A stretch of DNA of 64,000 nucleotides. It comes from an uncultured Bacteroidales bacterium. GTDB lineage: Bacteria > Bacteroidota > Bacteroidia > Bacteroidales > Muribaculaceae. The stretch spans positions 36,889 to 100,888 of the forward strand of contig CAMQYL010000001.1 in assembly GCA_947039275.1 (NCBI GenBank), written 5' to 3'. The position numbers were made by a program, and so were the translations under genes. Below the pieces are notes generated by a model, which did not search any database, was not told the DNA's origin, and saw only the letters and a list, made by a program, of their open reading frames with translations. Numbering within the stretch: the first letter of the stretch is position 1; the number at the start of each line of letters is the position of its first letter. Shown one piece after another: positions 21,350-61,933 of the stretch.

Positions 21350-21462
21350 AACCGTTTTTATACCCTTTAAACACTCCCTTTGGCAAATTTCTTATAATTT
21401 TGCCGTTGGCAGCGAGGATGCTGCTTTTACTTATATCCATTCTTCTTGCATTAGGAAAAGCT

Positions 21463-27000: not shown

Positions 27001-30000
27001 ACTGACAGCCAAGACCGTCATGTCAACTCCCACGGTGCGCGAAATCGCCGCCTCCTTAGAGTCGGCGACAAGAACAGCCGACGATACCACCGCGCACAAA
27101 CGCCGCCGCTACTATCCGCTGACTGAAAACCAGCGCGGAGTCTACATTGACTGGGAAATGAACCGTGACGCGCTGCAATACAATATACCTCAGGCATACA
27201 AATTCGGACAGGGCACAGATGCCGAAGCTCTCCGCGAGGCAATCTACAAGGTGCTTGCAGCCCATCCGTCATTGAAAACCCGCATGGTCATGCGCGGTGG
27301 CGATGTGATGCAGGAACGCCGCGACGACGAACCCATTGAGATTACCATAACCGACCTTGACGAAGCTCCAACCCAGGAATTCTTACAGAGCCGCATCCGT
27401 CCGTTTGATCTGCTTAATGACTGCCTATTCCGCTGCGAGATATATCGCCACGGCGATGACGTGTACATGCTCCGCGACACCCATCATATCATCTACGACG
27501 GAGTGTCGGCGATGCTTTTCCATCAGGATATGGTCAAAGCCTATGACGGTGCCGCGCTTGAAGCTGAGACATACACCGCGCTTGACCACGCGCTTGACGA
27601 GAAAGAGCTGCTTGAGAGCGATGAAGCCGACAAAGCCGCGGAGTGGCTTGACCGACTCGTTGACGGCTCAGAACCGACCTCATATCCGCGCAGCGCCCAG
27701 CCCGACAACGACATATCTGGTGGCATGGGACGAATCAGACTCTCTCTACCGTCTGCCGACATCAAAGCTTTCTGCTCCAAAGGCGGCGTGACTGTCAGCA
27801 ACTACATGCTTAGTGCGTTTGTACAGCTCCTTCACCGACTCACTCGCGAACAGACCGTGCAGATCGTCACCGTCAACAACGGCAGAAGTGATATGCGCCT
27901 CATTGGCGACATGGGCATGTTTGTCAAGACCCTCCCTGTGGTGTCACGTTGCTCAGCTCCGACCGCAACACCGCTTGACTTCGCCCGCGACATGCAGACA
28001 CAGTTCTTGACATCGCAAGACTACGACTTCTATCCATTCACCGCATTGGTGGAACAGAAAGGTGTGCGCCCCGACATAATGTATGTGTATGAAGGTGGCA
28101 TCAATCTCGCAGGCGATGCCGATGACCGACTCAAAGCCGAGAAAATTCCGCTCTCGCTTGACACAGCCAAAGTACCGCTGACATTGCTCGTGTTTGAGCC
28201 GACCGATGATGAATTTGAGCTGGCACTTGAATACGACACATCCATGTATGCCAAAGCTGACATGGAGGTTTTTGTGGAAATGATGCGCACCCTCAGTCTC
28301 ACTCTCACACAGGCACCGACCATAGCCGACGGTCTGATGGTCAATGCAGCGCAAGAGAAGCAACTCCGCACCATGCGCCATGGTGATACAGGCGAAGTGC
28401 TCTACACCTCATTCCACGGCGCAATGGAAAGCCGTGCCGATGCCACTCCCGATGCCCCGGCACTCGTGGCATGCGACAAGCGGATGTCCTACCGCGACTT
28501 TGACGAGGAGTGTAACCGCATCGCCAATGCTCTGATTAAGCGCGGTGTGCGCCGTGGTGACCGCATCGTCATTCTGCTCCCGCGCCGCTCATACCTCATC
28601 ACTGCCATCTATGGCACGATGAAGGCAGGTGCTACGTATATCCCCTGCGACCCCGAATACCCGGCAGACCGCATACGCCTCATAACCGAGGACAGCGATG
28701 CGAAATTTGTCATCACGACAGCCGACAAGGTTTCTCTTTATCCCGGAAAAGCCGTTGACATTGACGAACTGCTGACCGAAACCGACACAAAACGTCCGAA
28801 TGTCGCAGTAGCACCTGAAGATATCGCCTATATGATATATACTTCCGGCTCTACCGGCAGACCAAAAGGTGTGATGATACCGCAGAGAGCCATCACCAAC
28901 TACCTCTATGGATACTATAAGATGTTCTACAAAGAGCGTCCTGACATAAAGACGCAGATGCTCCTTGTGACCATCTCGTTTGATGCCTCGCTGCTCAATC
29001 TCGGAGGTTCGCTGACATCTGGACACTGCCTGGTGCTTGCCAATGAAGACGAGTGCAAGGATGTGGTGCTGTTGTCAAAACTGATGCTCGACAATGGTGT
29101 CGACGCTACCGATATCACTCCGAGCCGTCTGGATGCGATGCTTGACCTGCCAGAATTCGGACGAGCCATAGCCCGCTGCAAGCATATCAACATCGGTGGT
29201 GAGGGTTTCCAGAACACCCTTATAGCCAAACTATGTTCGGCAGGTTTCCGTGGACGTGCTATAAACGAATACGGACCGACGGAAACCACCGTAGGCTGCA
29301 ACCAAGCCGAAGTAACTCCGTTTGAACCCATAATTGCCGGGCGACCGTTCTATAATGCAAGCGAACGAATCGTCGATGCCTGGGGGTCGGAACTGCCTGT
29401 CGGAGCCGTCGGCGAACTCTATATATTCGGTCGCGGCGTGGGTCTTGGATACAACAACCTGCCCGAAAAGACCGCACAGTCGTTCGTCGATTTCAATGGA
29501 GAGAGAGGCTATCGCACCGGCGACCTTGCCCGATGGACTCCCGAAGGGAATGTGGTCATACTCGGACGCATAGACCATCAGGTCAAGCTACGAGGTCTCC
29601 GTATAGAGCTTGGCGAAATCGAGAGCGTGGCACAGCAGTTTGATGGCATCAAAAATGCCGCTGCAGATGTGCGCGAGGTCAACAAGATTCAGCATCTCTG
29701 CCTCTACTACACTGCCACCTCGCCAATTGACAAAGCAAAATTCCGCGAGCATCTTGCATCCTCGCTTACAGAATATATGGTGCCGGACGCATACACCGAG
29801 GTGGAGGTAATGCCGCTGACACCCAACGGCAAAATCAACCGCAAAGCTCTTCCCGAACCAGAGATTGCACCCATGACACCATATGTTGAGCCAGAGGGCG
29901 AGTTAGAGAAAACGATTGCAAAGGCATTCGGCACCATCCTACGCAATGACCGCATCGGAGCCAATGACGACTTCTTCGCCATCGGTGGTACATCAATCAG

Positions 30001-31330: not shown

Positions 31331-33066
31331 CAGCATCCTCACGCACACCATATCTCGTAGGCAAAGCTTTCCGCAGCTTTCTTCTCGCTTCGGTACTGAC
31401 TGCCGCAGCCTCGCAGGTGGGAGCGTTGATTGACGGACTGATGCTCAGCCGCTTCATCAACGAGGAGGCGATGAGTGCCATCAACATCACCTCCCCTGTC
31501 ACGCAGGCTCTCTTTGCCCTGTGCATCCTCATAGGTGTAGGAGGGTCGATGCTCGCTGGCATAGCCATCGGCAACCACCGTAAGGATGAAGCCTCAGGCA
31601 TCTTCTCTGTGGTCATAACCACGGCTGTCACGCTCGGCATAGTGCTCGGCATAGCCGGGATGGTGTTCCTCACGCCCCTGCTGCACCTGCTCTGCCCCGA
31701 TGCTTCGCTTCAAGGGTACACCTCGCAATATCTTGTCGTGATCCTCCCTGCCTCGGCTATATATATGCTGATGGTGGTGGCGCAGATGTTTGTGACCCTT
31801 GACGGCGAACCGCGACGTGTCACTGCCGCGGTGACTACCTGCATGGTGGTCAAACTGACGCTCGACTACATCTTCATAGTGTGGTGTGGTTGGGCGATGA
31901 CAGGTGCGGCTATCGCCACAGTCATCAGCTACTTAGGCTCTCTGTGTGTCCTGTTTCCACATTTCCTAAAAAAAGAGGCTCTACGATACACCTTGCCCCG
32001 TACCATACGCCAGTTGGGCCGCATTGCCTCCATGGGTCTGCCTTTCGGCATCGCCACAGTTCTGATAGCCGTGCAGATGCTCGGCAACAACCTTGTGGCA
32101 ATCAACTACCTCGGAGCCGCCGGCATAGTCACGCTGTCGATATGCATGTATCTGCTGCGATTTTCAATGATTATCCTCACGGGGACGCTTGAATCGTTTC
32201 AGCCCGTCGCTGCCATACTAAAAGGCTCCGGTGATAACCATGGCGTAGCACTTGTGCTCGGCAGAGCCTACCGGTTTCTGGCAGTCAGCCTCTCGGTGCT
32301 TGCCCTCATACTGATAATCTTCCCGGGTTGGATTGCCGACCTGTTTGGCATCGATGATGCTGCCTCGATGGCGATGCTCCATGTGGCACTCCCGGCATAT
32401 GCAGTCAATATCATACTCCAGTGTGCCGTATATCTGCTGATACCTGTCTATCAGATATACAGCCATAAAAACATGGCTCTGATTATCTCGTTCGGACAAC
32501 CGTTGATGCCCATGGTGTGCTACTGGCTGCTGTCGGCTGCCGTCGGCGCAGGATATGCCTGGATCAATCCGTGGTGGGGCTTCGCCATCGGGCAGCTCGT
32601 TGTGGTGTTGATACTCGCTCCATTTGCACTTACACGCAAAGGCGACCACAAGCCGTTTGTACTCATCCCGACCGACAATCCCGACGAACTCTTTGACATA
32701 TCAGTGACACCTGCCATCGACCGTATGGAAGATGCCATAGTAGAAGCGGACGAATGGATGCGCACACAGAGCTTACCAGAGCAGCTGCGTCTGCGCGTTG
32801 GACTGGCATGTGAGGAAAGCATCAAGAATATCATACAGCATGCCCTCGGCAAAAAGGCACAGCACTCAGCGATAGACATGCGCATAGCTCTGTCAGCCGA
32901 CAAAGTGACGGCTGTTATCCGCGATGAAGGCACCCCTTTCAACCCCGTGGAACAAGATCCTGGCACCGGGCTCGGCTTGATGCTCGTCCGCAAAACCTGC
33001 GACGACCAAAAGTACGAGTACCTCTTCCACCAAAACATCCTCACCATCGAGTGGCAGCGCAAATAA
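31327..33066 (+). CDS. MATE/MOP-family efflux transporter fused to a C-terminal RsbW-like HATPase domain
   Basis: 579 aa. About 440 aa are polytopic and MATE-like (..LMLSRFINEEAMSAINITSPV..). The last roughly 130 aa (..LACEESIKNIIQHAL..VIRDEGTPFNPVE..GTGLGLMLVRK..KYEYL..) are paralogous to the C-terminus of the 21463-23742 product. The ATGA overlap with the NRPS stop is at 31327-31330. Confidence 0.75.
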   Translation: MTASSRTPYLVGKAFRSFLLASVLTAAASQVGALIDGLMLSRFINEEAMSAINITSPVTQALFALCILIGVGGSMLAGIAIGNHRKDEASGIFSVVITTAVTLGIVLGIAGMVFLTPLLHLLCPDASLQGYTSQYLVVILPASAIYMLMVVAQMFVTLDGEPRRVTAAVTTCMVVKLTLDYIFIVWCGWAMTGAAIATVISYLGSLCVLFPHFLKKEALRYTLPRTIRQLGRIASMGLPFGIATVLIAVQMLGNNLVAINYLGAAGIVTLSICMYLLRFSMIILTGTLESFQPVAAILKGSGDNHGVALVLGRAYRFLAVSLSVLALILIIFPGWIADLFGIDDAASMAMLHVALPAYAVNIILQCAVYLLIPVYQIYSHKNMALIISFGQPLMPMVCYWLLSAAVGAGYAWINPWWGFAIGQLVVVLILAPFALTRKGDHKPFVLIPTDNPDELFDISVTPAIDRMEDAIVEADEWMRTQSLPEQLRLRVGLACEESIKNIIQHALGKKAQHSAIDMRIALSADKVTAVIRDEGTPFNPVEQDPGTGLGLMLVRKTCDDQKYEYLFHQNILTIEWQRK

Positions 33067-33085
33067 TCCATCAGATACTAACCCT

Positions 33086-33159
33086 TGTAGGGACATGCCG
33101 TGGCATGTCCGCTGCCAACACACGCTTGATGGGCGGACATGCCACGGCATGTCCCTACA
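33086..33159. repeat. REPIN-like inverted doublet (type 1)
   Basis: TGTAGGGACATGCCGTGGCATGTCCGC ... GCGGACATGCCACGGCATGTCCCTACA, between the MATE gene and the PPTase gene. Confidence 0.85.
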
Positions 33160-33178
33160 ATCATTCGCCATATCAATT

Positions 33179-33682
33179 ATGACGGACTACCTGATTGAGG
33201 AGATATCTGAGCCGCTGAGCCCTGGGCAACTCAGCGTCAGGGCGCGCGAGGTGCTGGGACGTCTGCTTGCCGACAGGTACGGCATCAGCCAGCTGCCTGT
33301 TATCGCCACATATCCGTCAGGCAAACCGTATTTCCCTACGCATCCGCATATCCATTTCAGTCTGTCACACTGCTCTCGGGCGGTCATTGCAGTGGTCTCG
33401 GATTCGGAGGTAGGATGTGACATTGAAGATATGCAGGCCGCAGCCGATATCACAAGCGAACTGCTGCAAGTGGCGTTTTCACTCGCAGAACAAGCTCAGA
33501 TACTCCAGTCAGCCAATCCGGCTGTGGAGATGACGCGCCTTTGGACCCGCAAAGAAGCCAATATGAAACGCACCGGGAGCATCCCCGACAACCCTGTCAA
33601 CTGGCTGTCGGAGATGCCCGGTGTGTCTACGTCTACCTGCTGCGAGGCAGCGAAAGGCTACATATATTCAATCAGTCATTGA
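33179..33682 (+). CDS. 4'-phosphopantetheinyl transferase (Sfp type)
   Basis: 167 aa from the internal ATG, with GKPYF...HFSLSHC and GCDIE motifs and ...WTRKEA.... The upstream part of the ORF-track entry is a translation of the REP palindrome. Confidence 0.85.
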   Translation: MTDYLIEEISEPLSPGQLSVRAREVLGRLLADRYGISQLPVIATYPSGKPYFPTHPHIHFSLSHCSRAVIAVVSDSEVGCDIEDMQAAADITSELLQVAFSLAEQAQILQSANPAVEMTRLWTRKEANMKRTGSIPDNPVNWLSEMPGVSTSTCCEAAKGYIYSISH

Positions 33683-36859: not shown

Positions 36860-36867
36860 TAACTTTG
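36860..36867 (+). promoter_or_regulatory. candidate -7 box (TAACTTTG) for regulator A
   Basis: TAnnTTTG match 61 nt upstream of the ATG. Box, spacing and flanks are conserved with 49509-49516. Confidence 0.4.
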
Positions 36868-36875
36868 TCCCTGGT

Positions 36876-36902
36876 TGTAGGGACATGCCGTGGCATGTCC
36901 GC
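36876..36902. repeat. single REP unit (type 1) in the predicted 5' leader of regulator A
   Basis: TGTAGGGACATGCCGTGGCATGTCCGC. Confidence 0.8.
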
Positions 36903-36927
36903 TTCCCAGCCCCGTCAGTCACACCCG

Positions 36928-38568
36928 ATGAAATACCTTGCTATCTTCATAATCGCAATCGCAGCGCTGTCGGTGTCGTGCGGCAGACACGCCGCCACCG
37001 AGGCAGTCATTGACCGCGCCGACTCACTGATGACTGAGCATCCCGACTCGGCTCTGACACTGCTCAGTGCCATCGACGGCTCAGCCCTGCCCCTCGGTTC
37101 GGAGCTTAACGCCCGCTATGCCCTGCTGCTGACTCAGGCACAGGCAAAGTGCTTCAAGACCCCAGCTGACGATTCGCTCATATCCATAGCTGTTGACTAT
37201 TATACACGCCACGAAGACCTGCTGCAGCTGACCAAGGCGCATTTCTATCGCGGGAGCGTGCAGTACAAAGCCAAACATTACGCCAAGAGCCTGATGTCGA
37301 TGTTTCAGGCTCTGGAGCTGGCGCGTGAAGTGGAGTCCGATTTCTGGATGGGGCTTGCGAGCCGCGGAGTCGCCGACGTGTATCTCGCCACATATAACGG
37401 AGAGGAGGGAGTGCGATACGCACAGAAAGAATACGAGCACTTCCGTCGCGACAAAACCCAGCCATACCTAAATTACGCACTCTTAGATCTCTCAAGAGCC
37501 TACAATAACTCATGTAGATACAAGGAATCCATACCTATCTGCCGACAAGTTGTTGACTCAGCCCGTAAGCATGATGACCCATATCTTGAGCATGAAGCAT
37601 GGGGAACAATGGGACGTTCACTGATGGGAGCACAAAGATATGCAGAGTCAGCCAAAGCGTTTGAAAAAGTTTGCGTGTCAGAATACGCCACTGCCGAAGA
37701 CTCATCATACCTTGCAACCATGTATGCAAAATCCGATCGCTTGGATAAAGCCATTGATTTATATCATGCAATAGGAAACCGAGACACTACCCTCCAGCTT
37801 GACTGGCTGAAATTTGAGATATATGTACGCATTGATTCTCCATATCGTGCCATAAAATCCCTTTTAAAACTTGACACCGAACATAATGACATTATAGAAA
37901 ACCGCATAAGCATCGATCTTACGACATCGCTGCTTGATTATCATACCAATCTTCGACAGGAAGCAGAGCGTTCACGCGATCTTTCATACATGTTTATCGG
38001 CGCCATGACCATAATAGGTCTGCTGATTGCCTTTATTATTTATGTGTGGATCAAGCGGTATCGGCAGCGGCAAAAGGAAAAGATAGAGCAAGGATTGGCA
38101 ATGGTACAGTCTCTGAGCGATTCGCTACAGACCAAATCATCAGAGTGCATACAAAACCGCCAGCTTATCCATACCCTGCTCCGCAAGAAATATGTCCTGT
38201 TTGACCAACTGTGCCGTCAGGTATATCCCCGACAGGACATCGAAGCTACCAACCGGCAGCTCTATCAGACCATCACGGACTTCGTAAAAGAAATCCAGGG
38301 CAATGAAACAAAAACCGATGAATTGGAGGCGATGGTCAATCAGCATATGTCGGGTCTGATGACTGATTTCAAAGCGGATGTCCCCAAAGCCAACAAGACC
38401 GATGCCAAGCTGTTCCTGTTTTCAGTCTTAGGCTTCTCAGACACAGCCATCGCCATGTTTCTCGGCAAAAAGCAGGTAAGAGCCGTCTACGATTCGCGCC
38501 GCCACCTCAAAGACAAAATCAAAGACTCCGGCTGTCCCAACCCCGACCGCTACATCCAATACCTATAG
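36928..38568 (+). CDS. membrane-spanning regulator: lipoprotein signal + TPR-like periplasmic domain + TM + coiled coil + C-terminal LuxR/GerE-like HTH (paralog A)
   Basis: MKYLAIFIIAIAALSVSCG lipobox, a helical-repeat region of about 340 aa, TM MFIGAMTIIGLLIAFIIYVWI (about 37984-38052), and C-terminal ..LFLFSVLGFSDTAIAMFLGKKQVRAVYDSRRHLKDKI... The architecture is shared with 49581-51242. Confidence 0.65.
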   Translation: MKYLAIFIIAIAALSVSCGRHAATEAVIDRADSLMTEHPDSALTLLSAIDGSALPLGSELNARYALLLTQAQAKCFKTPADDSLISIAVDYYTRHEDLLQLTKAHFYRGSVQYKAKHYAKSLMSMFQALELAREVESDFWMGLASRGVADVYLATYNGEEGVRYAQKEYEHFRRDKTQPYLNYALLDLSRAYNNSCRYKESIPICRQVVDSARKHDDPYLEHEAWGTMGRSLMGAQRYAESAKAFEKVCVSEYATAEDSSYLATMYAKSDRLDKAIDLYHAIGNRDTTLQLDWLKFEIYVRIDSPYRAIKSLLKLDTEHNDIIENRISIDLTTSLLDYHTNLRQEAERSRDLSYMFIGAMTIIGLLIAFIIYVWIKRYRQRQKEKIEQGLAMVQSLSDSLQTKSSECIQNRQLIHTLLRKKYVLFDQLCRQVYPRQDIEATNRQLYQTITDFVKEIQGNETKTDELEAMVNQHMSGLMTDFKADVPKANKTDAKLFLFSVLGFSDTAIAMFLGKKQVRAVYDSRRHLKDKIKDSGCPNPDRYIQYL

Positions 38569-38645
38569 CACCCTCACCACCAAAATAGAGAGTGTTGCAA
38601 AACCACCAATCCACCTTCTTGTAGGGACGCGGCACAATGCTGTCT

Positions 38646-38925
38646 GCTTAAGATTATTTCGCTTGTAAAGGCGCGGCGTAGCCGCGGCAGGAGTAGTAGC
38701 CACATGCAAGCAAGTCGTCAGACTTGTGAAGCTTGTGGTCTATAGTCCCCCATCATATCCCGGCGGCGTCAGCTGCCGGGGCTGATGCATGCGATTGCCC
38801 CGGCAGTTACACCGCCGGATTTCCATTAGATCCGTTTTCCACAAGCTACGCAAGTCTGACGACTTGCTTGCATGTGGCTACTACTCCCCTCGCGGCTAAC
38901 ACCGCGAGCGTTAAGAATAAAGGGT
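38646..38925. repeat. large nested inverted repeat (about 50-bp near-perfect arms)
   Basis: GGAGTAGTAGCCACATGCAAGCAAGTCGTCAGACTTG at 38690-38726 pairs with CAAGTCTGACGACTTGCTTGCATGTGGCTACTACTCC at 38851-38887. There is an inner hairpin CCCGGCGGCG...CGCCGGG-like and flanking small hairpins. Confidence 0.75.
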
Positions 38926-38954
38926 GTTGCAGAACTCAAAAAACACGCCGCAAA

Positions 38955-39036
38955 TTGTAGGGATGCACCCTGGTGCATCCGCCAACACACTGATAATCAG
39001 TCCATGGATTTCGGCTGCGCCATGGTACATCCCTAC
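38955..39036. repeat. REPIN-like doublet (type 4 stem GGATGCACC/GGTGCATCC; right unit degenerate)
   Basis: TGTAGGGATGCACCCTGGTGCATCCGC ... GCGCCATGGTACATCCCTACA. Confidence 0.65.
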
Positions 39037-39061
39037 AATTTAGAATTATGCAACACACTCA

Positions 39062-39352
39062 GCCGTGTGTAACTCCAGACACGGTGGATACGTCTCCGAC
39101 GTGACTATGGCCTCCGTGGGAGGCACACATGTTAGGCAGTGGTAGGGCTGGTTGTAGGTCAGCTTTACCACTGTACAAGACGCATCCCCCAAACAATCCG
39201 TCGCTGTAGGCGGCGCACCTTGACGGCACGGGGCTGTGCGCCTCCTACGGAGGTGTTTTTGGAAGGGGGCGGATGTCGGCACAGTGGTCATCCCAGCCTA
39301 CAGCTTGGCTGACCACTGCCTAACATGCCGGCCTCCTACGGAGACCAGCAGC
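39062..39352. repeat. large nested inverted repeat with internal GTAGG-type units
   Basis: CATGTTAGGCAGTGGT (about 39131) pairs with ACCACTGCCTAACATG (about 39311). There are several GCCTCC(G/T)(T/A)(G/C)GGAGG hairpins, and ACGTCTCCGACGT is shared with the 20273-20674 element. Confidence 0.65.
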
Positions 39353-39532
39353 TGATACCTATAAAAACGACTTGGCAAACGGCTTCACTAACCCACTATA
39401 TATCAGTCGGTTAAAATATCGCCAACTTGGCAAGAAAATTTTCTTTACAACACGCTGATTACCAGCAATTTAAAAATCAAGGTTGCCAACTTTTTTCGCC
39501 CCGAAAATTTGGCTGTCCCATTCCAAGCACCG

Positions 39533-39540
39533 TAACTTTG
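39533..39540 (+). promoter_or_regulatory. candidate -7 box (TAACTTTG) for cassette A structural genes
   Basis: TAnnTTTG match 25 nt upstream of the 39565 ATG. Confidence 0.4.
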
Positions 39541-39564
39541 CCGCAAAATCATCTCACCCACGTT

Positions 39565-39933
39565 ATGAAAACATTCGTCACATCAATCATCTTAGCACTG
39601 TCGCTGATATCAATCTCAATAATATGCCACGGAGGTGAATCAGATACAAAGACAGGAGCAGCAGGTAGAGTAAATAAACCCGAATCCAATCGACCGACAG
39701 CCCCCTCTCATGCGTATATATATTTCACATACACGAGAGGACACATAGATTTCACACTCAGCACCACCATGGAGTACATCGATATCATCATTAGCAAAGA
39801 TGACATCCCCATATGGTCAGGCACGGTCACACAAGACGAGCCATCCGCCGACCTACCCATCCTCTATGGTGAACACACCATCGCATGTATCACCGAAAAC
39901 GGGCACGTCTATCTCGGCTATCTGGATTTCTAA
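39565..39933 (+). CDS. small secreted protein, DUF3244-like (paralog A)
   Basis: 122 aa from the internal ATG, with signal peptide MKTFVTSIILALSLISISIIC. The C-terminal block DDIPIWSGTVTQDEPSADLPILYGEHTIACITENGHVYLGYLDF is nearly identical to the 51440-51820 product. Confidence 0.7.
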   Translation: MKTFVTSIILALSLISISIICHGGESDTKTGAAGRVNKPESNRPTAPSHAYIYFTYTRGHIDFTLSTTMEYIDIIISKDDIPIWSGTVTQDEPSADLPILYGEHTIACITENGHVYLGYLDF

Positions 39934-41711: not shown

Positions 41712-41728
41712 TCTTAACAGTCTATATA

Positions 41729-43810
41729 ATGAAAACCAGAATTATCATATTGACGAGTATCCTATCTTTCATCATCAACATTGACGCTTTCGCGCAAGGG
41801 GAGCAGAGTGACACTCTGCGGCTGGGGGAGGTGACTGTCAGGGCAGCGCAGCAGTATGTGACGGCGGATGCTGTGGTTTATGTGCCGACTAAGGCTGACA
41901 AGAGGGATGCGCAGAGTGCGGTGGATCTGCTGCGGATGTCGGCTATACCGCAGATTAAGGTCAATCCAGTGGATGACAAAGTGACTGACAACTTCGGCGA
42001 GGATGTCAGCATATTTCTCAATTATCTCCCGGCTGGTAAGGAAGACATTTCCGGGCTTAAAACATCGGATGTGAAGAAAATCGAATATCTCACCTCCCCA
42101 ACCGATCCGCGGTTCAGAGGCGCAAAATCGGTCATAAATATCATCGTCACCGAATACGCATATGGCGGTTACACCAAACTTTCATCCACGCTACGCACTA
42201 TCAGCGACATCTCCGGAGGCGTGGATGTCTACAGCAAATTCGCATACAAACGGATGACTTTTGACCTGTATGCCGCGCTTAAAGAGTCATCGACACACCA
42301 CTCAGGCACATCCAACGATGACCGATACACCGTTGCCGACGGTATCGTCACAAGAAAGGAGACTCCCCAATCGTCTTACCTGCGTGACAGCCGTTATCCC
42401 ATCACCTTCCGCGCCACCTACAATGCACCCACCATGCAGCTGAGCAACGCTGTGGCATTTTCACATACAGCCACACGAGCCAATGACGAAAGCGGACTGA
42501 TAGATTATAATGGAGGAGCATACGGCACAACCACAGAAGCATACCGAAGATATGAGCCTGACATGTCAAACTCGGCGATGTTCTTAGGGTCTTATTATTT
42601 CGAGCTACCCAAAGGCTGGGCATTAAGCATCGTCCCTCAGCTCTCCTATTCACACTACACCGACAATCTCGGCTATTACGTCACTGACTCATCGCCGATT
42701 ATCAGAGACATAGCCGAAGATGCCACCAGCGGAGCCATTGACGGATATTTAGAAAAGACTTTCGGACAATCACATTCGCTCATACTCGGAGTCTCTTATG
42801 AAAATGAGCATAACACCCTCCATTATATCAGAGAAAACAGCAAAGAAACAATCACCTATGATGCCGTAGACGGCTATGCCGGTTACACGTTCAGCAAAAA
42901 CGGATTGACAGCATCTATCGAAGGAGGCATGAAATGGGACAAATCCAAAGCCGGAGACAGCAGCGACCATAGTATTTCGCCGTTTGTCGACTGTGATTTA
43001 CGCTACAGCCCCGATACAAGAAACATGTTCTCCGCAAGCATACGGTATAAGACGACACCTCCTGCGTCCTTTCAGAAAACATCAGCGATATTGCTGGAAA
43101 ACGAGTTTCTATACGTCACAGGCAATGCGTCGCTGAAAAACGACCGACAACTCACAGCCAATCTTGGATACTCATACATCCCGTCAAACCTCATCACATT
43201 AAGCGGATATGCAAGCTATCGCGGAATCTATGACCGAATAACCGAATCATATGCGCCTTACGCAGAGGGGACAAGGCTCCTGCGCACATATGCCAACGAC
43301 GGACGTTACGACCGCATCATGGCAGGTGTATCGCTTTTTTGGAAACCGTTGGACGGAAAGCTCGTAGTCAGTTCTTCGCCAGGATTTGCCCACTATCAGA
43401 TCAGCGGACCTGTGGCAAGATGTTACAACGCATTCCAATTCAACGCCTCCGTCAGAGGAAGCCTGTCGAATTTCTATGCCTCCGCGTCTTTCAAACTCCA
43501 AAGCCGTGAATTAGCCAGTTCAAACAATGCCATATGGAAAGACCGTGACTACTATTCCATCGAAGCCGGCTGGGCAAATGACAATCTAAACGTCCGCCTC
43601 AACGCAGCCAACCTGTTCAATCGCGGATGGGTAAGCATAACCCAGGATATGGAGAGCGAGCTATGCTCCTATTACCGCACATACTACGGCAGCACATACC
43701 ATACCACTCTGTCACTGAGCGTCACCTACACCATCGGTTACGGCAAAAAAATCACCCGCCGCAACGAGATAGGTGAACTCAACCAATCCAGCTCAGCCAT
43801 AATGAAATAA
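41729..43810 (+). CDS. TonB-dependent-receptor-like outer membrane beta-barrel protein (OMP_b-brl_3-like)
   Basis: 693 aa from the internal ATG, with signal peptide MKTRIIILTSILSFIINIDAFAQ and plug-like ..LRLGEVTVRAA...KKIEYLTSP... It is the most divergent member of the family. Confidence 0.7.
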   Translation: MKTRIIILTSILSFIINIDAFAQGEQSDTLRLGEVTVRAAQQYVTADAVVYVPTKADKRDAQSAVDLLRMSAIPQIKVNPVDDKVTDNFGEDVSIFLNYLPAGKEDISGLKTSDVKKIEYLTSPTDPRFRGAKSVINIIVTEYAYGGYTKLSSTLRTISDISGGVDVYSKFAYKRMTFDLYAALKESSTHHSGTSNDDRYTVADGIVTRKETPQSSYLRDSRYPITFRATYNAPTMQLSNAVAFSHTATRANDESGLIDYNGGAYGTTTEAYRRYEPDMSNSAMFLGSYYFELPKGWALSIVPQLSYSHYTDNLGYYVTDSSPIIRDIAEDATSGAIDGYLEKTFGQSHSLILGVSYENEHNTLHYIRENSKETITYDAVDGYAGYTFSKNGLTASIEGGMKWDKSKAGDSSDHSISPFVDCDLRYSPDTRNMFSASIRYKTTPPASFQKTSAILLENEFLYVTGNASLKNDRQLTANLGYSYIPSNLITLSGYASYRGIYDRITESYAPYAEGTRLLRTYANDGRYDRIMAGVSLFWKPLDGKLVVSSSPGFAHYQISGPVARCYNAFQFNASVRGSLSNFYASASFKLQSRELASSNNAIWKDRDYYSIEAGWANDNLNVRLNAANLFNRGWVSITQDMESELCSYYRTYYGSTYHTTLSLSVTYTIGYGKKITRRNEIGELNQSSSAIMK

Positions 43811-43913
43811 AACCCATCGCCACAGCAGCAATATAGACTGTAATATGCTGGCAATCAATGCAATATCTTTAAAATTCCACATTCATAGTCATAATCGCCT
43901 GATTTACAGCCAA

Positions 43914-44096
43914 ATACAGCCTATATTCATAAAAATACTAAAATTAAATTTTCATATCCTCGCAATATCCTTATTATCAATTAGTTACAAAGCACAAAAG
44001 CCAAATAATTTTTCCGTCAAAATAAGCAACAAACGAAAAATAGGCTCTAATTTTGCAGTTTGACATTCATTATTTTTCATCACATTCAGTAATCCG
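43914..44096 (+). promoter_or_regulatory. repeated promoter/leader cassette, copy 1 (upstream of barrel gene 44097)
   Basis: Contains ATACAGCCTATATTCATAAAAATACTAAAATTAAATTTT, AAAGCCAAATAATTTTTC (43997-44014), the -7 box TAATTTTG (44048-44055) and the leader ...TTTTCATCACATTCAGTAATCCGATG. About 80 percent alignable by eye with 46413-46594. Confidence 0.55.
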
Positions 44097-46277
44097 ATGC
44101 AGTTACGTTTCTTTTTATTTGCAGTGGTGCTTACGGCGGAGGCAGTGACAGTCTGCCATGCGCAGGTTGATGTTGATTCTATCGTTGCGGTCTATGAGAG
44201 GGAGCTGGCACTTGACGAGGTCACGGTGACGGCTCAACGCAAGAGCACGAAGGTAATCCGTGGCGGTATATCCTACGACATGGCAGGGAACAAACTGGCT
44301 GACGGGATGTCGATGGCTGACGCTATCAAATTCGTGCCGCTTGTGGCTCCTACGCCTGGGGGTGGCGTGAGCGTGACAGGGAGCAAGCCGGTGAAACTGT
44401 ATCTCAACGGCAATCCGTGGAACATCGCAGCAAGCGATCCTGCCGGGGCGTTGGCGAGTCTCCCAGCCAATTCGGTGGCAAAAGTAGAGGTAATCCTCTC
44501 GGGCGACATCCGCTATCCCGAAGCGCGTGGATATGCCGTGATTGACGTATATACAAAGCAGCGGCTTCTTGACCACTACAATCTATATGCCCGGCTCGTC
44601 GGGGAGACGATGCCTCGCGGCGAGGGGAACATCGCCGCCGACTTCGCCAAAGGAAATGTCACACTCTCGGCTTCATATCTCTACGATGTCGACCGCCAGA
44701 ACAACCAACGCGCCACATGGACGAGCGCATTCCGCTCTCCCCTCTCCGCCCCGCTCTCGGCACGGCGAGAGATGGACGACGGCACCGGCACATGGCAGAG
44801 CCACCTGGGAAGCCTCATGGCGACATGGCAGGCAGACACCCTCAACACGCTCTATGCCGACGTACATGTGTTGGCAAAAATCCAGCATTTCAACACCACA
44901 TGGCACGAAACAGCAGACCTGCATATGCCAGAGGGCATCGTGACTAATGAATATTTTGACCACAACAGGGACTACAACAATTTCACAAAATTAGAGACCA
45001 ACATAATCTGGCAGAATCATCGCCCCTCCGACCGCTCTGAGCGATGGAAAGTAGGTTACCGCTACACATTTGACCCCGATACGCGCTCATATGACGTAGA
45101 AAGCACGACCGGCAATGACTTGTCAGCCCCACAGATCGCCGAAGGAAAAACCCGCGGCAAGCAGCACAACCATCTGCTGTCGGGAATCTACACCCATCCC
45201 ATCAATCACAACAACCGCATCCAAGCCGCCATATGGCAGACCCTGCGATATGGCAGAGCCAAATATCTCATACCCGATACTGGCGAATGGGACACCGACC
45301 TCCGCTACGATTACGCCATCACGGAGGCAGCCATGGCATACAGCGGCAGCTACGGCAAAGTCAATCTCTACGCCTCTGCCGGCATGGAATATGCCCATAC
45401 CAATCTCCGTTACTACGACAGCGACAAGCGGCGTTACGATTATTGGTCGTTAGTGCCATCGCTCTCAGTGGGCTATGCCATCAGCCGCAGCAGTAACATC
45501 AGCCTCAATTACGATTACAGCGTCAAGCGTCCCGACATCATGCAGCTCAACCCATTTGCCGAGTATATTAACCGTCACGGCTGCACCCAGGGCAATCCAT
45601 CGCTGCGTCAGTCGGGCATACACAATGTGCAGTTGTCGTGGTTTAAGATGTGGCAGAAATTCATGGTATCAGCAAGTGCCTCCTACAGCCACGCCACGCA
45701 TCCCATCATGCTGATGCCGACAGAGTCCCTGTCAGACATCTATGTAATGCTATCACGTTACGCCAACATTGACCGCTCCGACATGGCAGGGCTGTCAATA
45801 TTCGGTCGCTTGACCATCCGCAACGGCATGTACCTGTCACTCAACGCCTCCGGTTCGCGCCAATGGCTCCATGATGCAGCGAGTTCACTGTCGCAAAGCA
45901 GCTATGGAGTCAACGTCTACGCCTCCTACGATGCCTCTTTCAGGCATGACTGGGCAGTAGGGGCAAGTTACGGCTACTTCAAAAACCATCCCGAGCCGTT
46001 CACATCCGTCAACTCCATGTACATCAACGATTTCAAGGTCAGAAAAGGATTCCTTGACCGCAGTCTCAACATAGAGCTGGCTCTCAGCATGCCGTTTTCA
46101 CGTCACCGCAAAATATCCCGCACAGTCACCCTCCCGACCGCAGAGATGACCCAGACCAACTGGGCGACAGCCCGCTCCCTGCGTCTGACCCTCTCCTACC
46201 TCCTCGGCGGCAAAGTCTCCAAAGTGAAGCGTGACCGCTCCCTCAACACCACCGACATCACAACCGGCATCGAATAA
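44097..46277 (+). CDS. TonB-dependent-receptor-like outer membrane beta-barrel protein (OMP_b-brl_3-like)
   Basis: 726 aa with signal peptide MQLRFFLFAVVLTAEAVTVCHAQ, ..LALDEVTVTAQRK.., and the family motif ..KRPDIMQLNPFAEYINRHGCTQGNPSLRQS... Confidence 0.8.
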   Translation: MQLRFFLFAVVLTAEAVTVCHAQVDVDSIVAVYERELALDEVTVTAQRKSTKVIRGGISYDMAGNKLADGMSMADAIKFVPLVAPTPGGGVSVTGSKPVKLYLNGNPWNIAASDPAGALASLPANSVAKVEVILSGDIRYPEARGYAVIDVYTKQRLLDHYNLYARLVGETMPRGEGNIAADFAKGNVTLSASYLYDVDRQNNQRATWTSAFRSPLSAPLSARREMDDGTGTWQSHLGSLMATWQADTLNTLYADVHVLAKIQHFNTTWHETADLHMPEGIVTNEYFDHNRDYNNFTKLETNIIWQNHRPSDRSERWKVGYRYTFDPDTRSYDVESTTGNDLSAPQIAEGKTRGKQHNHLLSGIYTHPINHNNRIQAAIWQTLRYGRAKYLIPDTGEWDTDLRYDYAITEAAMAYSGSYGKVNLYASAGMEYAHTNLRYYDSDKRRYDYWSLVPSLSVGYAISRSSNISLNYDYSVKRPDIMQLNPFAEYINRHGCTQGNPSLRQSGIHNVQLSWFKMWQKFMVSASASYSHATHPIMLMPTESLSDIYVMLSRYANIDRSDMAGLSIFGRLTIRNGMYLSLNASGSRQWLHDAASSLSQSSYGVNVYASYDASFRHDWAVGASYGYFKNHPEPFTSVNSMYINDFKVRKGFLDRSLNIELALSMPFSRHRKISRTVTLPTAEMTQTNWATARSLRLTLSYLLGGKVSKVKRDRSLNTTDITTGIE

Positions 46278-46412
46278 CCCACTCCCAACAACAAAAATAT
46301 ACAAACATACCACCACATCAAACCTGAATATAGATTATAAACTGCTATAAATCACCAATATAGACCCAAAGATAATAAGAAATCGGTCTTAACAGCTTGA
46401 TTATCAGATAAA

Positions 46413-46594
46413 TACAATCTATATTTTCAAAAAGACTAAAAATAAAATTTTGCACTTTCATAACTCTCTAATTTTAAGCACATTACAAAGCGCAAAAGCC
46501 AAATGATTTTTCTCTCAATATCAGCAAGAAACGGAAAATATGCTCTAATTTTGCAGTTTGACATTAATTAATTTTCATCACATTAAATAATCCG
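46413..46594 (+). promoter_or_regulatory. repeated promoter/leader cassette, copy 2 (upstream of ABC exporter)
   Basis: TACAATCTATATTTTCAAAAAGACTAAAAATAAAATTTT, AAAGCCAAATGATTTTTC (46495-46512), -7 box TAATTTTG (46546-46553), and leader ...TTTTCATCACATTAAATAATCCGATG. Confidence 0.55.
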
Positions 46595-49508: not shown

Positions 49509-49516
49509 TAACTTTG
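49509..49516 (+). promoter_or_regulatory. candidate -7 box (TAACTTTG) for regulator B
   Basis: TAnnTTTG match in the same context as 36860-36867. Confidence 0.4.
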
Positions 49517-49524
49517 TTCCCCGT

Positions 49525-49551
49525 TGTAGGGACATGCCATGGCATGTCCGC
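49525..49551. repeat. single REP unit (type 1) in the predicted 5' leader of regulator B
   Basis: TGTAGGGACATGCCATGGCATGTCCGC. Confidence 0.8.
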
Positions 49552-49580
49552 TTTCCCAGCCCCGACCAGTCACACTCCAG

Positions 49581-51242
49581 ATGAGAAATCTTGCCATCCT
49601 CTTCATAATCGCAATCGTCGCCCTGTCGGCGGCATGCAGCCGTCACGCCGCCACCGAGGCAGCCCTTGACCGCGCCGACTCCCTAATGTCAGAGCACCCC
49701 GACTCCGCACTTGCCATCCTCACCGCCATCGACGGCACACCCCTCCCCCAAGGCTCCGGACTCCAAGTCCGCTACGCCCTGCTGCTGACCCAGGCAAAAA
49801 CGAAAAACCACATAATAGAGACCAACGATTCACTGATATCCATTGCTAATGACTACTATTATAAGGAAGGGGACGAGTTTCTACTAATGAAAGCACGATT
49901 TTATTTAGGCAATATTCTCTATCATCAGAAAAACTACCCTAACTGCATGCTCAATATGTTTATGGCTTACGAGTATGCAAAGGAAATAGATGATTGTTTT
50001 TGGATCGGTATGACAGCCCGCGGGCTCGGAGACGCATATAAAGAGACTTTCAACAGCAAAGAGGAAGTGGCATACTACCACATCGCAGCAGATGCATTCG
50101 CCAGCTACGGCAAACAAGCGTTTATTGATTACAGCCTCCTTTATCTTGCAATTGCTTATTGTGATGCCGGTGAATACGAGTCGGGGATTGTCTATGCATT
50201 GGAGGCACGGGACTCTGCCCTGACGCATGGAGACGAGCCTTTGCTGATCGAGGCTTTAAGAGCTGGCGGCATGAACGGACTGGGTGCAAAAAATTACAAG
50301 ATAGCAATCTCATCGTTTGAAACCCTGTGCAAAAACCACACCTCCACTCGTGAAGATTCCCTCTACCTCGGATTGCTGTATCTACGTACTGGCGCAGTCC
50401 ATAAAGCGACAAACATCCTGAACAAAATCAAAATAAATGAAGATGGTGTGGGCGACTGGTTCCGTTATGAGTTGTATAAAGAACTGGATTCAATACCCCA
50501 AGCCCTAACCGCTCTTGAGAATCTTGAGAATTACGAAAACTCTACTTTTAATTCACGCATCAATCAAGGACTGACAGGTGTGTGCGTTGATTATTATGAT
50601 ACGCAAAAACGCGCAAAAGAGGAAGATATTAAACGGTCTCATGTCATAAATTGGGCAATGCTCTTCCTTCTCATTTGTCTCATAACCATATCATTGGCAT
50701 ACATCCTCCGCTATAAGAAAAAGAAACAGTCAGAGTTGGACACAGCTACGATAATAGCAGAAAATCTACGGGATATCTTATCAAGAAAGGAAGAGGAGTA
50801 CAGGCAGGTCAACACTGCATTTACATCTGCAAAAGAGACCATTGACAGCCTCTTGGATGTAAGATACGAGGAATTTGATATGTTGTGTCAAGAAATGTAT
50901 AGCTCTTCTAACAGGTCTTCAATCCAAAAGCAAATCGCGAGCAAGCTTAATATGATGGTAGACAGCTTTTCCTCAGACATCAAGAAAATTAAAGAACTGC
51001 AAAAGTTTGCCGATTTACATCACGACAATATAGTATCAGAACTGAAAAAAGACCTGCCATCCATAAAAGACATTGATCATAACCTGTTCCTCTACGTCGT
51101 GTTGGGTTTCTCAACTCAGGCAATTGCACTGTTTCTAAAAGCTGGCAAGATCGATTCAATCTATGAAAGAAAGCGTCGTCTCAAAGATAAGATAAAACAG
51201 CTTGATGCCACGAAAGCCCAGAAATATCAAGCGTATCTATGA
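49581..51242 (+). CDS. membrane-spanning regulator: lipoprotein signal + TPR-like domain + TM + coiled coil + LuxR/GerE-like HTH (paralog B)
   Basis: MRNLAILFIIAIVALSAAC lipobox. The first roughly 80 aa are highly similar to paralog A (..RHAATEA.(I/L)DRADSLM.EHPDSAL..L.AIDG..LP.GS.L..RYALLLTQA..). TM VINWAMLFLLICLITISLAYIL (about 50644-50712). C-terminal ..LFLYVVLGFSTQAIALFLKAGKIDSIYERKRRLKDKI... Confidence 0.65.
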   Translation: MRNLAILFIIAIVALSAACSRHAATEAALDRADSLMSEHPDSALAILTAIDGTPLPQGSGLQVRYALLLTQAKTKNHIIETNDSLISIANDYYYKEGDEFLLMKARFYLGNILYHQKNYPNCMLNMFMAYEYAKEIDDCFWIGMTARGLGDAYKETFNSKEEVAYYHIAADAFASYGKQAFIDYSLLYLAIAYCDAGEYESGIVYALEARDSALTHGDEPLLIEALRAGGMNGLGAKNYKIAISSFETLCKNHTSTREDSLYLGLLYLRTGAVHKATNILNKIKINEDGVGDWFRYELYKELDSIPQALTALENLENYENSTFNSRINQGLTGVCVDYYDTQKRAKEEDIKRSHVINWAMLFLLICLITISLAYILRYKKKKQSELDTATIIAENLRDILSRKEEEYRQVNTAFTSAKETIDSLLDVRYEEFDMLCQEMYSSSNRSSIQKQIASKLNMMVDSFSSDIKKIKELQKFADLHHDNIVSELKKDLPSIKDIDHNLFLYVVLGFSTQAIALFLKAGKIDSIYERKRRLKDKIKQLDATKAQKYQAYL

Positions 51243-51415
51243 TAAATCCATGTCAATCAACATATTAGCAATAAATGCCTGATATTCAACACATTAAGAG
51301 AAAGCCAAAAAATTTTTTCATGTTTACTCATAATTCATTGACATTCAATCTATTACAAATTTGAAAAGCCAAACGAAAAACAGGCAAAAATTCGTTCTGT
51401 AGCCTCTTTTTGACA

Positions 51416-51423
51416 TAACTTTG
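51416..51423 (+). promoter_or_regulatory. candidate -7 box (TAACTTTG) for cassette B structural genes
   Basis: TAnnTTTG match 17 nt upstream of the 51440 ATG. AAAGCCAAAAAATTTTTTC at 51301-51319 resembles the cassette motif. Confidence 0.4.
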
Positions 51424-51439: not shown

Positions 51440-51820
51440 ATGAAATCACTCGTATCAATTTTTATCTCTCTCGTCATTTGCATGACCACATCATTGGCTA
51501 TGACCGCCAGTGAAAACAATTCGACCCCAAAAGCCGACAAACAGGCTGTACTAAAGCCACAGAATCCCACATCCAACAGACCCATGAAGCCGTCCTCAAG
51601 GTCATTGGTCTGCATATACACACAAGGCTATCTTGAGATAGAAATGCCTATTAATACGGAGTACCTCGATGTCACCATCAGCGATGATAACATTCCGGTC
51701 TGGTCAGGCACAGTCACACAGGACGAGCCATCAGCCGACATTCCCGTCCTCTACGGAGAGCATACCATCACGTGCATTACCGATGGCGGACATATCTTTA
51801 CTGGATATCTATCATTTTAA
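51440..51820 (+). CDS. small secreted protein, DUF3244-like (paralog B)
   Basis: 126 aa with signal peptide MKSLVSIFISLVICMTTSLAMTA. The C-terminal block DDNIPVWSGTVTQDEPSADIPVLYGEHTITCITDGGHIFTGYLSF is shared with paralog A. Confidence 0.7.
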   Translation: MKSLVSIFISLVICMTTSLAMTASENNSTPKADKQAVLKPQNPTSNRPMKPSSRSLVCIYTQGYLEIEMPINTEYLDVTISDDNIPVWSGTVTQDEPSADIPVLYGEHTITCITDGGHIFTGYLSF

Positions 51821-55499: not shown

Positions 55500-55543
55500 T
55501 TCCTCGTAATGCAAGACATCCAATGTCTAAGCATTACGAGGAA
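55500..55543 (+). terminator. long hairpin (terminator/attenuator candidate) directly after precursor B
   Basis: TTCCTCGTAATGC-A-AGACAT-CCA-ATGTCT-A-GCATTACGAGGAA, followed by TGATTTTCTT. A near-copy lies at 59174-59215. Confidence 0.55.
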
Positions 55544-58174: not shown

Positions 58175-58355
58175 TACAATCTATATTTCAAAAAAGCCTA
58201 AAAATTAAAAACCAACTATCTGTAACACATTGATTATATGAATGTTACATAACGTCAAAGCCAAATGATTTTTTCACCCAAACATGGCTCCAAGAATCAA
58301 AATTCAGTATCTTTGCGAATTAACTACCTGTTTTTATCAATCAACACAATCTATC
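58175..58355 (+). promoter_or_regulatory. repeated promoter/leader cassette, copy 3
   Basis: TTACAATCTATATTTCAAAAAAGCCTAAAAATTAAAAACC, AAAGCCAAATGATTTTTTC (58258-58276) and -7 box TATCTTTG (58308-58315). Confidence 0.5.
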
Positions 58356-61726: not shown

Positions 61727-61933
61727 TTACAATCTATATTTTGAAAAAGACAAAAATTAATTTCTCAGCAGTCTATAACCATCTGATTATTACATCATTA
61801 CAAACCAGTGATGCCAAATCATTTTTTGCCATATTTTCGTTAAACGCTTAATATAACCGTAAATTTGTGCTCAAATAATCTTCCATTAAAGACCAGAAAC
61901 CACCTTCAAATTCAGGTCTGATATATCGCATAA
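61727..61933 (+). promoter_or_regulatory. repeated promoter/leader cassette, copy 4
   Basis: TTACAATCTATATTTTGAAAAAGACAAAAATTAATTTC, ATGCCAAATCATTTTTTGCC (61811-61830) and -7 box TAAATTTG (61860-61867). Confidence 0.5.

Follow-up and report, generated by a model that had tools for sequence, protein, structure and literature searches.

A stretch of 64,000 nucleotides (nt) from an uncultured member of the Muribaculaceae (order Bacteroidales; assembly GCA_947039275.1, contig CAMQYL010000001.1), called the window in the following, contains two open reading frames (ORFs) coding for putative membrane-bound transcription regulators, designated reg1 (ORF 36928-38568) and reg2 (ORF 49581-51242). They are located next to two cassettes with genes for precursor peptides with a double-glycine (GG) leader, for radical S-adenosylmethionine (rSAM) enzymes and for a C39-ABC exporter, and genes for outer-membrane (OM) barrel proteins are found in the two cassettes. 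In an original prediction, made from the nucleotide sequence, the two gene products were described as paralogous lipoproteins with a periplasmic tetratricopeptide repeat (TPR) domain, one transmembrane (TM) helix and a cytoplasmic LuxR/GerE-like helix-turn-helix (HTH) domain, and it was suggested that they possibly respond to a modified peptide encoded next to them. The computational analysis presented here supports the architecture and points to a different partner, a small secreted protein of the DUF3244 family. The features of the two regulators are the following (lengths in amino acids, aa):

36928..38568, + strand: reg1, 546 aa, consisting of lipobox, TPR domain, TM helix, coiled linker and LuxR-type HTH
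36928..36981, + strand: reg1 signal peptide to the lipobox Cys18 (LSVSC), from hydropathy and conservation of the Cys
36982..37977, + strand: reg1 predicted periplasmic TPR superhelix, aa 19-350, from profile, AlphaFold2 and Foldseek, with the best-conserved block at aa 19-95
37978..38061, + strand: reg1 TM helix, aa 351-378, Kyte-Doolittle 2.58
38365..38529, + strand: reg1 LuxR/FixJ-type HTH, aa 480-534, from profile, Foldseek and hhalign
49581..51242, + strand: reg2, 553 aa, with the same architecture as reg1
50634..50717, + strand: reg2 TM helix, aa 352-379, from Kyte-Doolittle hydropathy
51039..51203, + strand: reg2 LuxR/FixJ-type HTH, aa 487-541, by alignment to reg1

Both ORFs and their paralogy were confirmed. 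The two proteins align end to end over 554 columns with 36% identity (E 4e-119), and by this sequence comparison they are full-length paralogs.

The Periplasmic Domain and the Transmembrane Helix

In both regulators, hydropathy analysis identified a hydrophobic N-terminal segment (aa 1-23), ending with LSVSC in reg1 and with LSAAC in reg2. The Cys of this lipobox, already noted in the original prediction, is invariant among 45 homologs and is conserved to at least 90% in a second set of homologs. An h-region followed by a lipobox Cys identifies a lipoprotein signal, here with a relaxed lipobox, since Ser and not Leu is present at position -3. Reg1 and reg2 are putative lipoproteins, for which cleavage by signal peptidase II and acylation are predicted.

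The Cys is followed by a predicted TPR superhelix of ~320 aa in each regulator. Pfam TPR_2 was matched by reg1 with 31.8 bits (cutoff 27), and reg2 gave sub-threshold TPR matches only; TPR families alone were reported in the Pfam scan of the two proteins, and TPR_2 was matched by 28 of 45 family members. A family profile matched consensus TPR, LGN and LapB structures in the PDB with E-values down to 1.8e-71, and NprR was also matched. The AlphaFold2 (AF2) model of reg1 is all-helical, with a mean predicted local distance difference test (pLDDT) score of 84, and Foldseek identified the TPR superhelices of LGN/Pins and Rap as its nearest solved folds, with CTPR also among the neighbours. By hidden Markov model, by PDB profile and by structure prediction, the regulators belong to the TPR-repeat proteins, in line with the helical repeats described at the outset.

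Conservation within the whole protein peaks directly after the lipobox Cys (ADSLMxxxPDSAL ... YALLLTQA ... DDSLISIAVDYY), and the first ~75 residues are the best-conserved part of the periplasmic domain, irrespective of the genes that follow the regulator. The most variable stretch of the protein is likewise located in the TPR region, at aa 216-330.

A single strong TM helix (Kyte-Doolittle 2.5-2.6) is present in each regulator and agrees with the helices proposed originally at 37984-38052 and 50644-50712. It is followed by a basic linker, KRYRQRQKEK in reg1 and RYKKKKQ in reg2, as was also described before. In the AF2 model of reg1, the TM helix is part of one long helix comprising aa 331-432. 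On the cytoplasmic side, this helix is succeeded by a helical domain, which has the HTH at its end. From the distribution of charges, from the presence of a signal peptide and from that of only one TM helix, the TPR domain is predicted to be periplasmic and the HTH domain cytoplasmic, and the topology of the original prediction is supported. The weaker hydrophobic peak at aa 494-513 (Kyte-Doolittle 1.79) was not accepted as another TM helix, since this segment forms the core of the HTH and homologs have Lys or Arg there.

The arrangement of sensor and effector on either side of one TM helix would also be compatible with a switch by regulated proteolysis, in which the tethered form is inactive and a periplasmic signal leads to site-1 and intramembrane cleavage, releasing the HTH domain. 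The lower predicted confidence of the Lys/Arg/Gln-rich linker would fit such a cleavage, and C10 peptidases and serpins are frequent neighbours of the family. However, no protease is conserved with the family, and the continuation of the TM segment as a long helix is expected of a stable dimeric transducer. In addition, SusR, a regulator of analogous topology, is described in the literature as binding to its target promoters while being a membrane protein (PMC3878776). A release by proteolysis is, on balance, quite unlikely.

The C-Terminal Domain

A profile of the last 80 residues, compared with the PDB, matched region 4 of sigma-H with an E-value of 3.9e-4 and seven LuxR-type DNA-binding domains, among them those of VraR, FixJ, PdeL, NarL, DevR and RcsB, in register with E-values of 0.02-1.6. 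When the domain was aligned by hhalign with the HTHs of VraR, FixJ and PdeL, a probability of 95.6% was obtained (E 1.3e-8, 54 columns). The C-terminal 55 residues are in register with the LuxR/FixJ HTH, including the recognition helix. A separate AF2 model of aa 410-546 (pLDDT 83) has as its Foldseek neighbours the DNA-binding domains of FixJ, RcsB, StyR, VraR and LiaR, together with region 4 of extracytoplasmic function (ECF) sigma factors, the match to SigD region 4 having a template modelling score of 0.76 and a root mean square deviation of 1.5 Å. In conservation, the HTH ranks second among the parts of the protein. From these comparisons, the C-terminal domain is a LuxR/FixJ-like HTH at the superfamily level, at which the LuxR/GerE-like assignment of the original prediction holds, and it would be expected to bind DNA. 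An identity as sigma factor was rejected, as only a region-4-like domain was found.

In another reading, the protein would mainly be an envelope scaffold or assembly factor, with a TPR lipoprotein domain organising the secreted or OM cargo proteins and a C-terminal domain that has a role other than DNA binding. TPR lipoproteins are often envelope assembly factors, the products encoded next to the regulators are consistently secreted or OM proteins, and Pfam detects no DNA-binding domain in the regulators. For BT_3442 of Bacteroides thetaiotaomicron, a distant homolog described below, a protein-protein interaction with a MACPF protein was proposed in 2010 (PMC2954219). Against a scaffold stand the in-register homology to the LuxR/FixJ HTH, which extends over the recognition helix, and the high conservation of this domain. 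Moreover, the domain is placed on the cytoplasmic side, where there is no such cargo to scaffold, and the adjacent promoters share a conserved upstream box at a fixed position. A scaffold function is therefore considered very unlikely.

Extent of the Family

Homologs of reg1 and reg2 have been identified in Muribaculaceae and other gut Bacteroidales, where they are annotated as unnamed or 'hypothetical' proteins. With the C-terminal module alone, 9,984 clusters (at 50% identity) were obtained at E <= 1e-3; among the matches listed, the full-length ones mostly comprise ~540-560 aa with the module at the C-terminus. In an exhaustive search of representative sequences, only close relatives were found among the matches listed, with no bridge to DUF6377 proteins or to SusR. 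A word-indexed protein search with the C-terminal profile returned short unannotated fragments only.

The NCBIfam model NF053779, the 'BT3442 family', is matched collinearly over the full length, and reg2 covers profile positions 1-547 of 563. The scores of 61.5 and 38.1 bits are far below the equivalog cutoff of 940, and by this profile comparison reg1 and reg2 are distant homologs of the BT3442 family, not equivalogs or orthologs. In B. thetaiotaomicron, BT_3442 was described as a multi-domain TPR protein and BT_3441 as a homolog of the structure 3d33 (BVU_0276), which has an immunoglobulin (Ig)-like fold, and the two are located in the BT_3442-BT_3433 cluster, at the head of which they stand and to which the MACPF genes belong (PMC2954219). 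The BT3442 family thus resembles reg1 and reg2 in that a TPR multi-domain protein is followed by a small protein of Ig-like fold, and it differs in the cargo, the MACPF cluster.

A close relative of the window was identified in Bacteroidales bacterium M7 (loci L001 and L002), in which the counterpart of reg1 is 94% identical. Between M7 and positions 34001-59123 of the window, blocks of 87-96% identity were found, with a mosaic arrangement of the cassette heads. In M7, reg1 is followed by an additional regulator paralog, by a DUF3244 gene of M7's own and by a homolog of window positions 58332-59123, and these replace the segment of the window that contains the DUF3244 gene, the precursor gene and the gene for the first rSAM enzyme. 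This mosaic suggests a shuffling of modules at repeated promoters or at repetitive extragenic palindromic (REP) elements.

The DUF3244 Partner and the Exchangeable Cargo

In the window, both regulators are followed by a gene for a small secreted protein:

39565..39933, + strand: DUF3244-like small secreted protein, first gene of cassette 1
51440..51820, + strand: DUF3244-like small secreted protein, first gene after reg2 at a distance of 198 nt

The genetic context of the family was surveyed in 78 related loci, mostly from Muribaculaceae and other gut Bacteroidales, with a locus scan seeded with a subset of 20 sequences. DUF3244 genes were counted when located within 1.2 kb of the regulator, among the 72 regulators with at least 700 nt of downstream sequence; rSAM and C39-ABC genes were counted for the 51 regulators with at least 6 kb downstream. 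A DUF3244 gene is located directly downstream of the regulator in 49 of the 72 cases and usually starts ~100-250 nt past the stop codon of the regulator. An rSAM gene was found downstream of only 10 of the 51 regulators, and a C39-ABC exporter gene downstream of 8. Other operons code for C10 peptidases with a Spi inhibitor domain, for serpins, for small OM protein (OMP) barrels or for receptors with a CarboxypepD_reg domain, and some could not be assigned to a category. In a neighbour-joining tree, the rSAM-linked regulators are interleaved with those linked to proteases, serpins and OMPs and form only small local groups. The conserved unit of the family is the regulator together with the DUF3244 gene, while the genes that follow are an interchangeable cargo of secreted or envelope proteins.

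The assignment of the small protein was obtained on the level of the family. A profile of the family matched PDB entry 3sd2 (E 1.3e-3), and PF11589 (DUF3244) was matched by 4 of 33 members with E-values down to 3.7e-8; a PDB search with the single sequence gave no match, so that the family profile was required. Ahead of the Ig-like domain, the DUF3244 family contains the conserved linear motif (N)RPxxPSxxxIxCxY. This RPxxPS motif is probably located in an extended N-terminal tail, and it is plausible that it serves as a ligand of the TPR groove.

These results bear on the autoinduction circuit proposed originally, in which the TPR domain would bind the mature rSAM-modified peptide from the adjacent cassette and the HTH would induce this cassette, making the regulators membrane-tethered analogues of the RRNPP proteins in a Gram-negative background. 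Such a function is suggested by the likeness of the TPR fold to the peptide-binding superhelices of LGN and Rap and by the location of both window regulators beside cassettes for GG-leader precursor, rSAM enzyme and C39-ABC exporter. The variable TPR region (aa 216-330) could hold the ligand specificity, and a few of the rSAM-linked regulators form small clades. Furthermore, passages of a 2023 survey (PMC10352776) report TPR genes in Bacteroidales rSAM clusters and speculate on a pheromone-type control; the TM-HTH architecture and the link to DUF3244 are not described in those passages.

However, only ~20% of the family members with enough flanking sequence are linked to rSAM genes, most others being located at the head of protease, serpin, OMP or MACPF operons, and the rSAM-linked members do not separate from the others in the tree. 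The resemblance to Rap is generic to TPR superhelices. The first TPR segment is best conserved whatever the cargo, which points to a common partner and not to variable peptides. The conservation of the regulator-DUF3244 unit with exchangeable cargo therefore argues against a family-wide sensing of the adjacent modified peptide, and the autoinduction circuit is unlikely. For these two paralogs peptide sensing is possible, though it is not the common logic of the family.

Promoters and a Candidate Operator

The pattern GCCAA[AC]-N41-44-TAnnTTTG occurs in six copies in the 64 kb, all on the + strand and all within the two cassettes, while 0.37 matches would be expected. TAnnTTTG is the -7 element of Bacteroidetes promoters. 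The distance between the box and the -7 element is 48 nt in five copies and 47 nt in one. The promoter features of the two cassettes are the following:

36860..36907, + strand: reg1 own promoter and hairpin, with the -7 box TAACTTTG followed by GGGACATGCC-GT-GGCATGTCC
39485..39540, + strand: promoter of the first DUF3244 gene, GCCAAC 48 nt before the -7 box TAACTTTG
44000..44055, + strand: cassette promoter upstream of the OM barrel gene 44097, GCCAAAT box 48 nt before the -7 element
46498..46553, + strand: same box, in the cassette promoter that precedes the C39-ABC exporter gene 46595
49509..49556, + strand: promoter of reg2 itself with hairpin, sharing 90% identity with that of reg1
51368..51423, + strand: promoter of the second DUF3244 gene, GCCAAA 48 nt before TAACTTTG, with a second AAGCCAAAAAATTTTT at 51302
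58260..58315, + strand: cassette promoter with the same box, upstream of ORF 58284, which has an internal lipobox-like signal peptide
61813..61867, + strand: sixth box and -7 promoter, spacing 47 nt, without an obvious downstream ORF
43889-44013, 46387-46511, 58149-58273, 61702-61826: promoter cassettes with an internal direct repeat

By eye, a second GCCAAC was found ~64 nt further upstream of the box of the first DUF3244 gene. Within each of the repeated promoter cassettes, the sequence TAACnnnnTRATTWT ... TTACAA is found as a direct repeat whose period is ~71-74 nt; it was matched exactly 4 times, compared to 0.09 expected. By visual inspection, the four promoters in these cassettes also lack a good -33 TTTG, which the DUF3244 promoters generally have, and for this reason they may depend on an activator. 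The sixth promoter cassette (61702-61867) may drive the synthesis of a small RNA or a small peptide, or may be a remnant.

The position of the box is also conserved outside the window. In 40 distinct DUF3244 promoters, those of L001 and L002 included, the pentamer [AC]C[AT]A[AC] starts exactly at -47 in 11, over a background of usually 0-1 and at most 4 per position. An exact GCCAA box is present ~160 nt past the stop codon of the regulator in the loci L002, L015, L019 and L025, the regulators of which are located in the same region of the tree as reg1 and reg2. Among the 78 loci and outside the M7 relative, the exact combination GCCAA[ACT]-N-TAnnTTTG was found just downstream of the regulator only in L015, L019 and L025, with four more scattered matches. 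From its position and distribution, the CCAAA-type box at -47 is the best candidate for an operator of the regulators.

The two regulator genes themselves share a promoter followed by a perfect hairpin of 10 bp, GGGACATGCC-GT-GGCATGTCC, which would be part of the 5' untranslated region if transcription starts just past the -7 box. The two copies are 90% identical, and therefore the duplication included promoter and leader. The shared hairpin could be an element for post-transcriptional control. A third and weaker copy of promoter and hairpin (67% identical) is located at 33070-33117, before a 4'-phosphopantetheinyl transferase gene.

Comparison to Known Regulators

By architecture, as known from the literature on SusR, the closest known kind is the SusR-like regulator. 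SusR has been described as a membrane protein whose sensor is periplasmic and whose C-terminal HTH is cytoplasmic, and direct repeats at a distance of 67 or 77 bp are predicted to be its operators (PMC3878776). Common to both systems are the restriction to Bacteroidetes, the inner-membrane location, the N-terminal periplasmic sensor and the C-terminal cytoplasmic HTH (PMC3878776), and SusR acts as a one-component activator of adjacent genes, as is proposed here for reg1 and reg2. Reg1 and reg2 have the SusR-like topology as inferred above, with the HTH identified by profile and hhalign, and the direct repeats of ~71-74 nt are reminiscent of the long-spacer repeats predicted for SusR-like operators.

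The cargo, in contrast, is different. Genes of polysaccharide utilization loci (PULs) such as susC/susD or glycoside hydrolase genes were not found nearby; the neighbours code for DUF3244 proteins, rSAM enzymes, OMP_b-brl_3 barrels, C39-ABC exporters, C10 peptidases and serpins. Unlike SusR, the family is associated with cassettes for ribosomally made and post-translationally modified peptides (RiPPs), proteases, serpins, MACPF proteins and OMPs and has DUF3244 as conserved partner, and the signal of reg1 and reg2 is probably not a sugar. DUF6377 proteins have been described as membrane-associated predicted regulators in PULs. Weak matches to DUF6377 (PF19904) were obtained for 6 of 45 family members (best E 2.8e-4), and in a Pfam scan none was found in reg1, reg2 or ten distant members.

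The C-terminal 55 aa are in register with the effector domains of LuxR, FixJ and NarL and with sigma-70 region 4, and they have the same fold. Compared to LuxR-type proteins, reg1 and reg2 contain neither a receiver nor an autoinducer domain, and their HTH is tethered to the membrane.

The RRNPP proteins Rap, NprR, PlcR and PrgX contain a TPR superhelix of similar size, a likeness found with Foldseek for Rap and with the profile for NprR. RRNPP proteins are cytoplasmic regulators of Gram-positive bacteria, in which the HTH, if present, is N-terminal and the peptides are imported. In reg1 and reg2, an extracytoplasmic TPR domain is joined through a TM helix to a C-terminal HTH of the LuxR type. 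The analogy drawn in the original prediction thus holds for the TPR structure, whereas the order of the domains is reversed and a TM helix is present, so that reg1 and reg2 are not members of this group.

In ToxR, CadC and TcpP, the winged HTH is N-terminal and cytoplasmic, and one TM helix connects it to a periplasmic domain at the C-terminus; regulators of this type often have a small periplasmic partner, such as ToxS, TcpH or VtrC. They share with reg1 and reg2 the single-pass link between periplasmic and DNA-binding domains, and the partner would be analogous to the role proposed for DUF3244. The polarity is the opposite, however, the folds are unrelated, and reg1 and reg2 carry a LuxR-type HTH, which places them outside the ToxR type.

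Proposed Mechanism

We propose that reg1 and reg2 are inner-membrane one-component transcription regulators, in which a signal received by the periplasmic TPR domain leads to the activation of promoters with a CCAAA-type box. This is considered the probable reading of the data, though with a good deal of room for doubt. The architecture, the synteny and the positions of the motifs were obtained directly by computation, and DNA binding, signal and regulon are inferred. The regulator would not leave the membrane, where it would probably dimerise by means of the long helix. Its activity would be set by what is bound to the TPR domain, most likely the DUF3244 protein or a ligand that this protein presents; the tight synteny, the family-wide conservation of the first TPR segment and the linear motif conserved in DUF3244 point to this. 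On the cytoplasmic side, the LuxR-type HTH would bind the CCAAA-type box near -55 and recruit RNA polymerase. The target promoters would be those with this box 47-48 nt upstream of a -7 TAnnTTTG, of which the window contains six.

A more far-reaching version is offered tentatively, as one that we regard as rather doubtful: regulator and DUF3244 protein would form a new family-wide two-gene sensory module that switches secreted weapon or defence cassettes (rSAM peptides, MACPF toxins, C10 proteases and serpins), with the RPxxPS tail bound in the TPR groove and the CCAAA box at -47 as operator. In such a module, the TPR superhelix could even reach from the outer to the inner membrane by means of the N-terminal lipid anchor and the TM helix.

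Several points weigh against the proposed regulator function and its partner. Pfam GerE (PF00196) was not matched at E <= 1 in reg1 or reg2, and it is absent from the 25 most frequently matched Pfam families across 45 members. The Foldseek E-values for the HTH are weak (0.6-4), because the domain is short, and in the cytoplasmic linker (aa 400-460) the AF2 confidence is only 53-68. For 23 of the 72 regulators, no downstream DUF3244 gene was detectable. The box is degenerate across the family and of low information content; it is tied to the regulators only by position and co-occurrence, and its presence could also be due to another factor or to an UP-like element.

In the window itself, reg2 is located 198 nt before the next gene, whereas 996 nt of non-coding DNA, REP-like and rich in palindromes, lie between reg1 and the gene that follows at 39565; the immediate upstream position claimed originally for both regulators is therefore true for reg2 and not for reg1. 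Since this gap of ~1 kb is present, and since another regulator paralog and a different cassette head are located there in M7, the target of reg1 is uncertain, and the genes downstream of it here may not be under its control. Finally, no functional study of the family was found in the searchable literature on BT3442, BT_3439-3441, DUF6377 and DUF3244.

Further Features of the Window

REP-like palindromes with the sequence TGTAGGGAYR occur 12 times in the window, compared to 0.3 expected. Three of them are located in the gap between reg1 and the next gene (38569-39564), and others are found, for example, at 475/552, 16543/16611 and 33086/33150. Outside the gap, they often form inverted pairs 65-80 nt apart.

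The two cassettes contain five genes for large OM barrels (41726-43810, 44097-46277, 53068-55272, 55729-58074 and 59338-61620). Four of the five were matched by OMP_b-brl_3, and two of these also by CarboxypepD_reg and by a Plug or TonB-receptor barrel domain; the barrel encoded by 41726-43810 gave no Pfam match. Four barrels were scanned against NCBIfam (all except 59338-61620), and none of them matched a model. The barrels may be involved in peptide import or export, or may be immunity or receptor proteins.

Two 42-nt sequences, at 55501-55542 and 59174-59215, are 93% identical and form near-perfect palindromes with arms of 12 nt (TCCTCGTAATGC...GCATTACGAGGA). The first is located just past the second GG-leader precursor gene (55294-55488) and the other just past ORF 58746-59153. 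Possibly, they are terminators or attenuators that set the ratio of precursor to enzyme.

Upstream of the cassettes, an unrelated biosynthetic locus (24053-33682) codes for a nonribosomal peptide synthetase of 2425 aa with two matches each to AMP-binding, condensation and PP-binding domains and with a terminal reductase, for a MatE transporter fused to HATPase_c_2 (31327-33066) and for the 4'-phosphopantetheinyl transferase (33095-33682). A further gene (21400-23742) codes for a 780-aa protein with a dCache/PDC sensor, HAMP, a SpoIIE phosphatase and an anti-sigma-kinase-like HATPase_c_2 domain, which looks like a fused partner-switching sensor.

Implications for the Bacteroidales

Reg1 and reg2 represent a variant of the known membrane one-component regulators of Bacteroidetes, with a conserved DUF3244 partner and a candidate operator. 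Gut Bacteroidales encode thousands of such proteins. If these are the switches of cassettes for antagonism and defence, the control of such loci would be explained; the cargo includes modified peptides here and, elsewhere in the family, pore-forming toxins, proteases and serpins. A handle on silent RiPP clusters would then be available, either by overexpression of the regulator or by the use of promoters carrying the box. The system would represent a fourth class of envelope-to-DNA signalling in Bacteroidetes and, if the TPR domain bridges the two membranes, a trans-envelope route distinct from hybrid two-component systems (HTCS), SusR and ECF/anti-sigma systems. For DUF3244, it would provide a first functional context.

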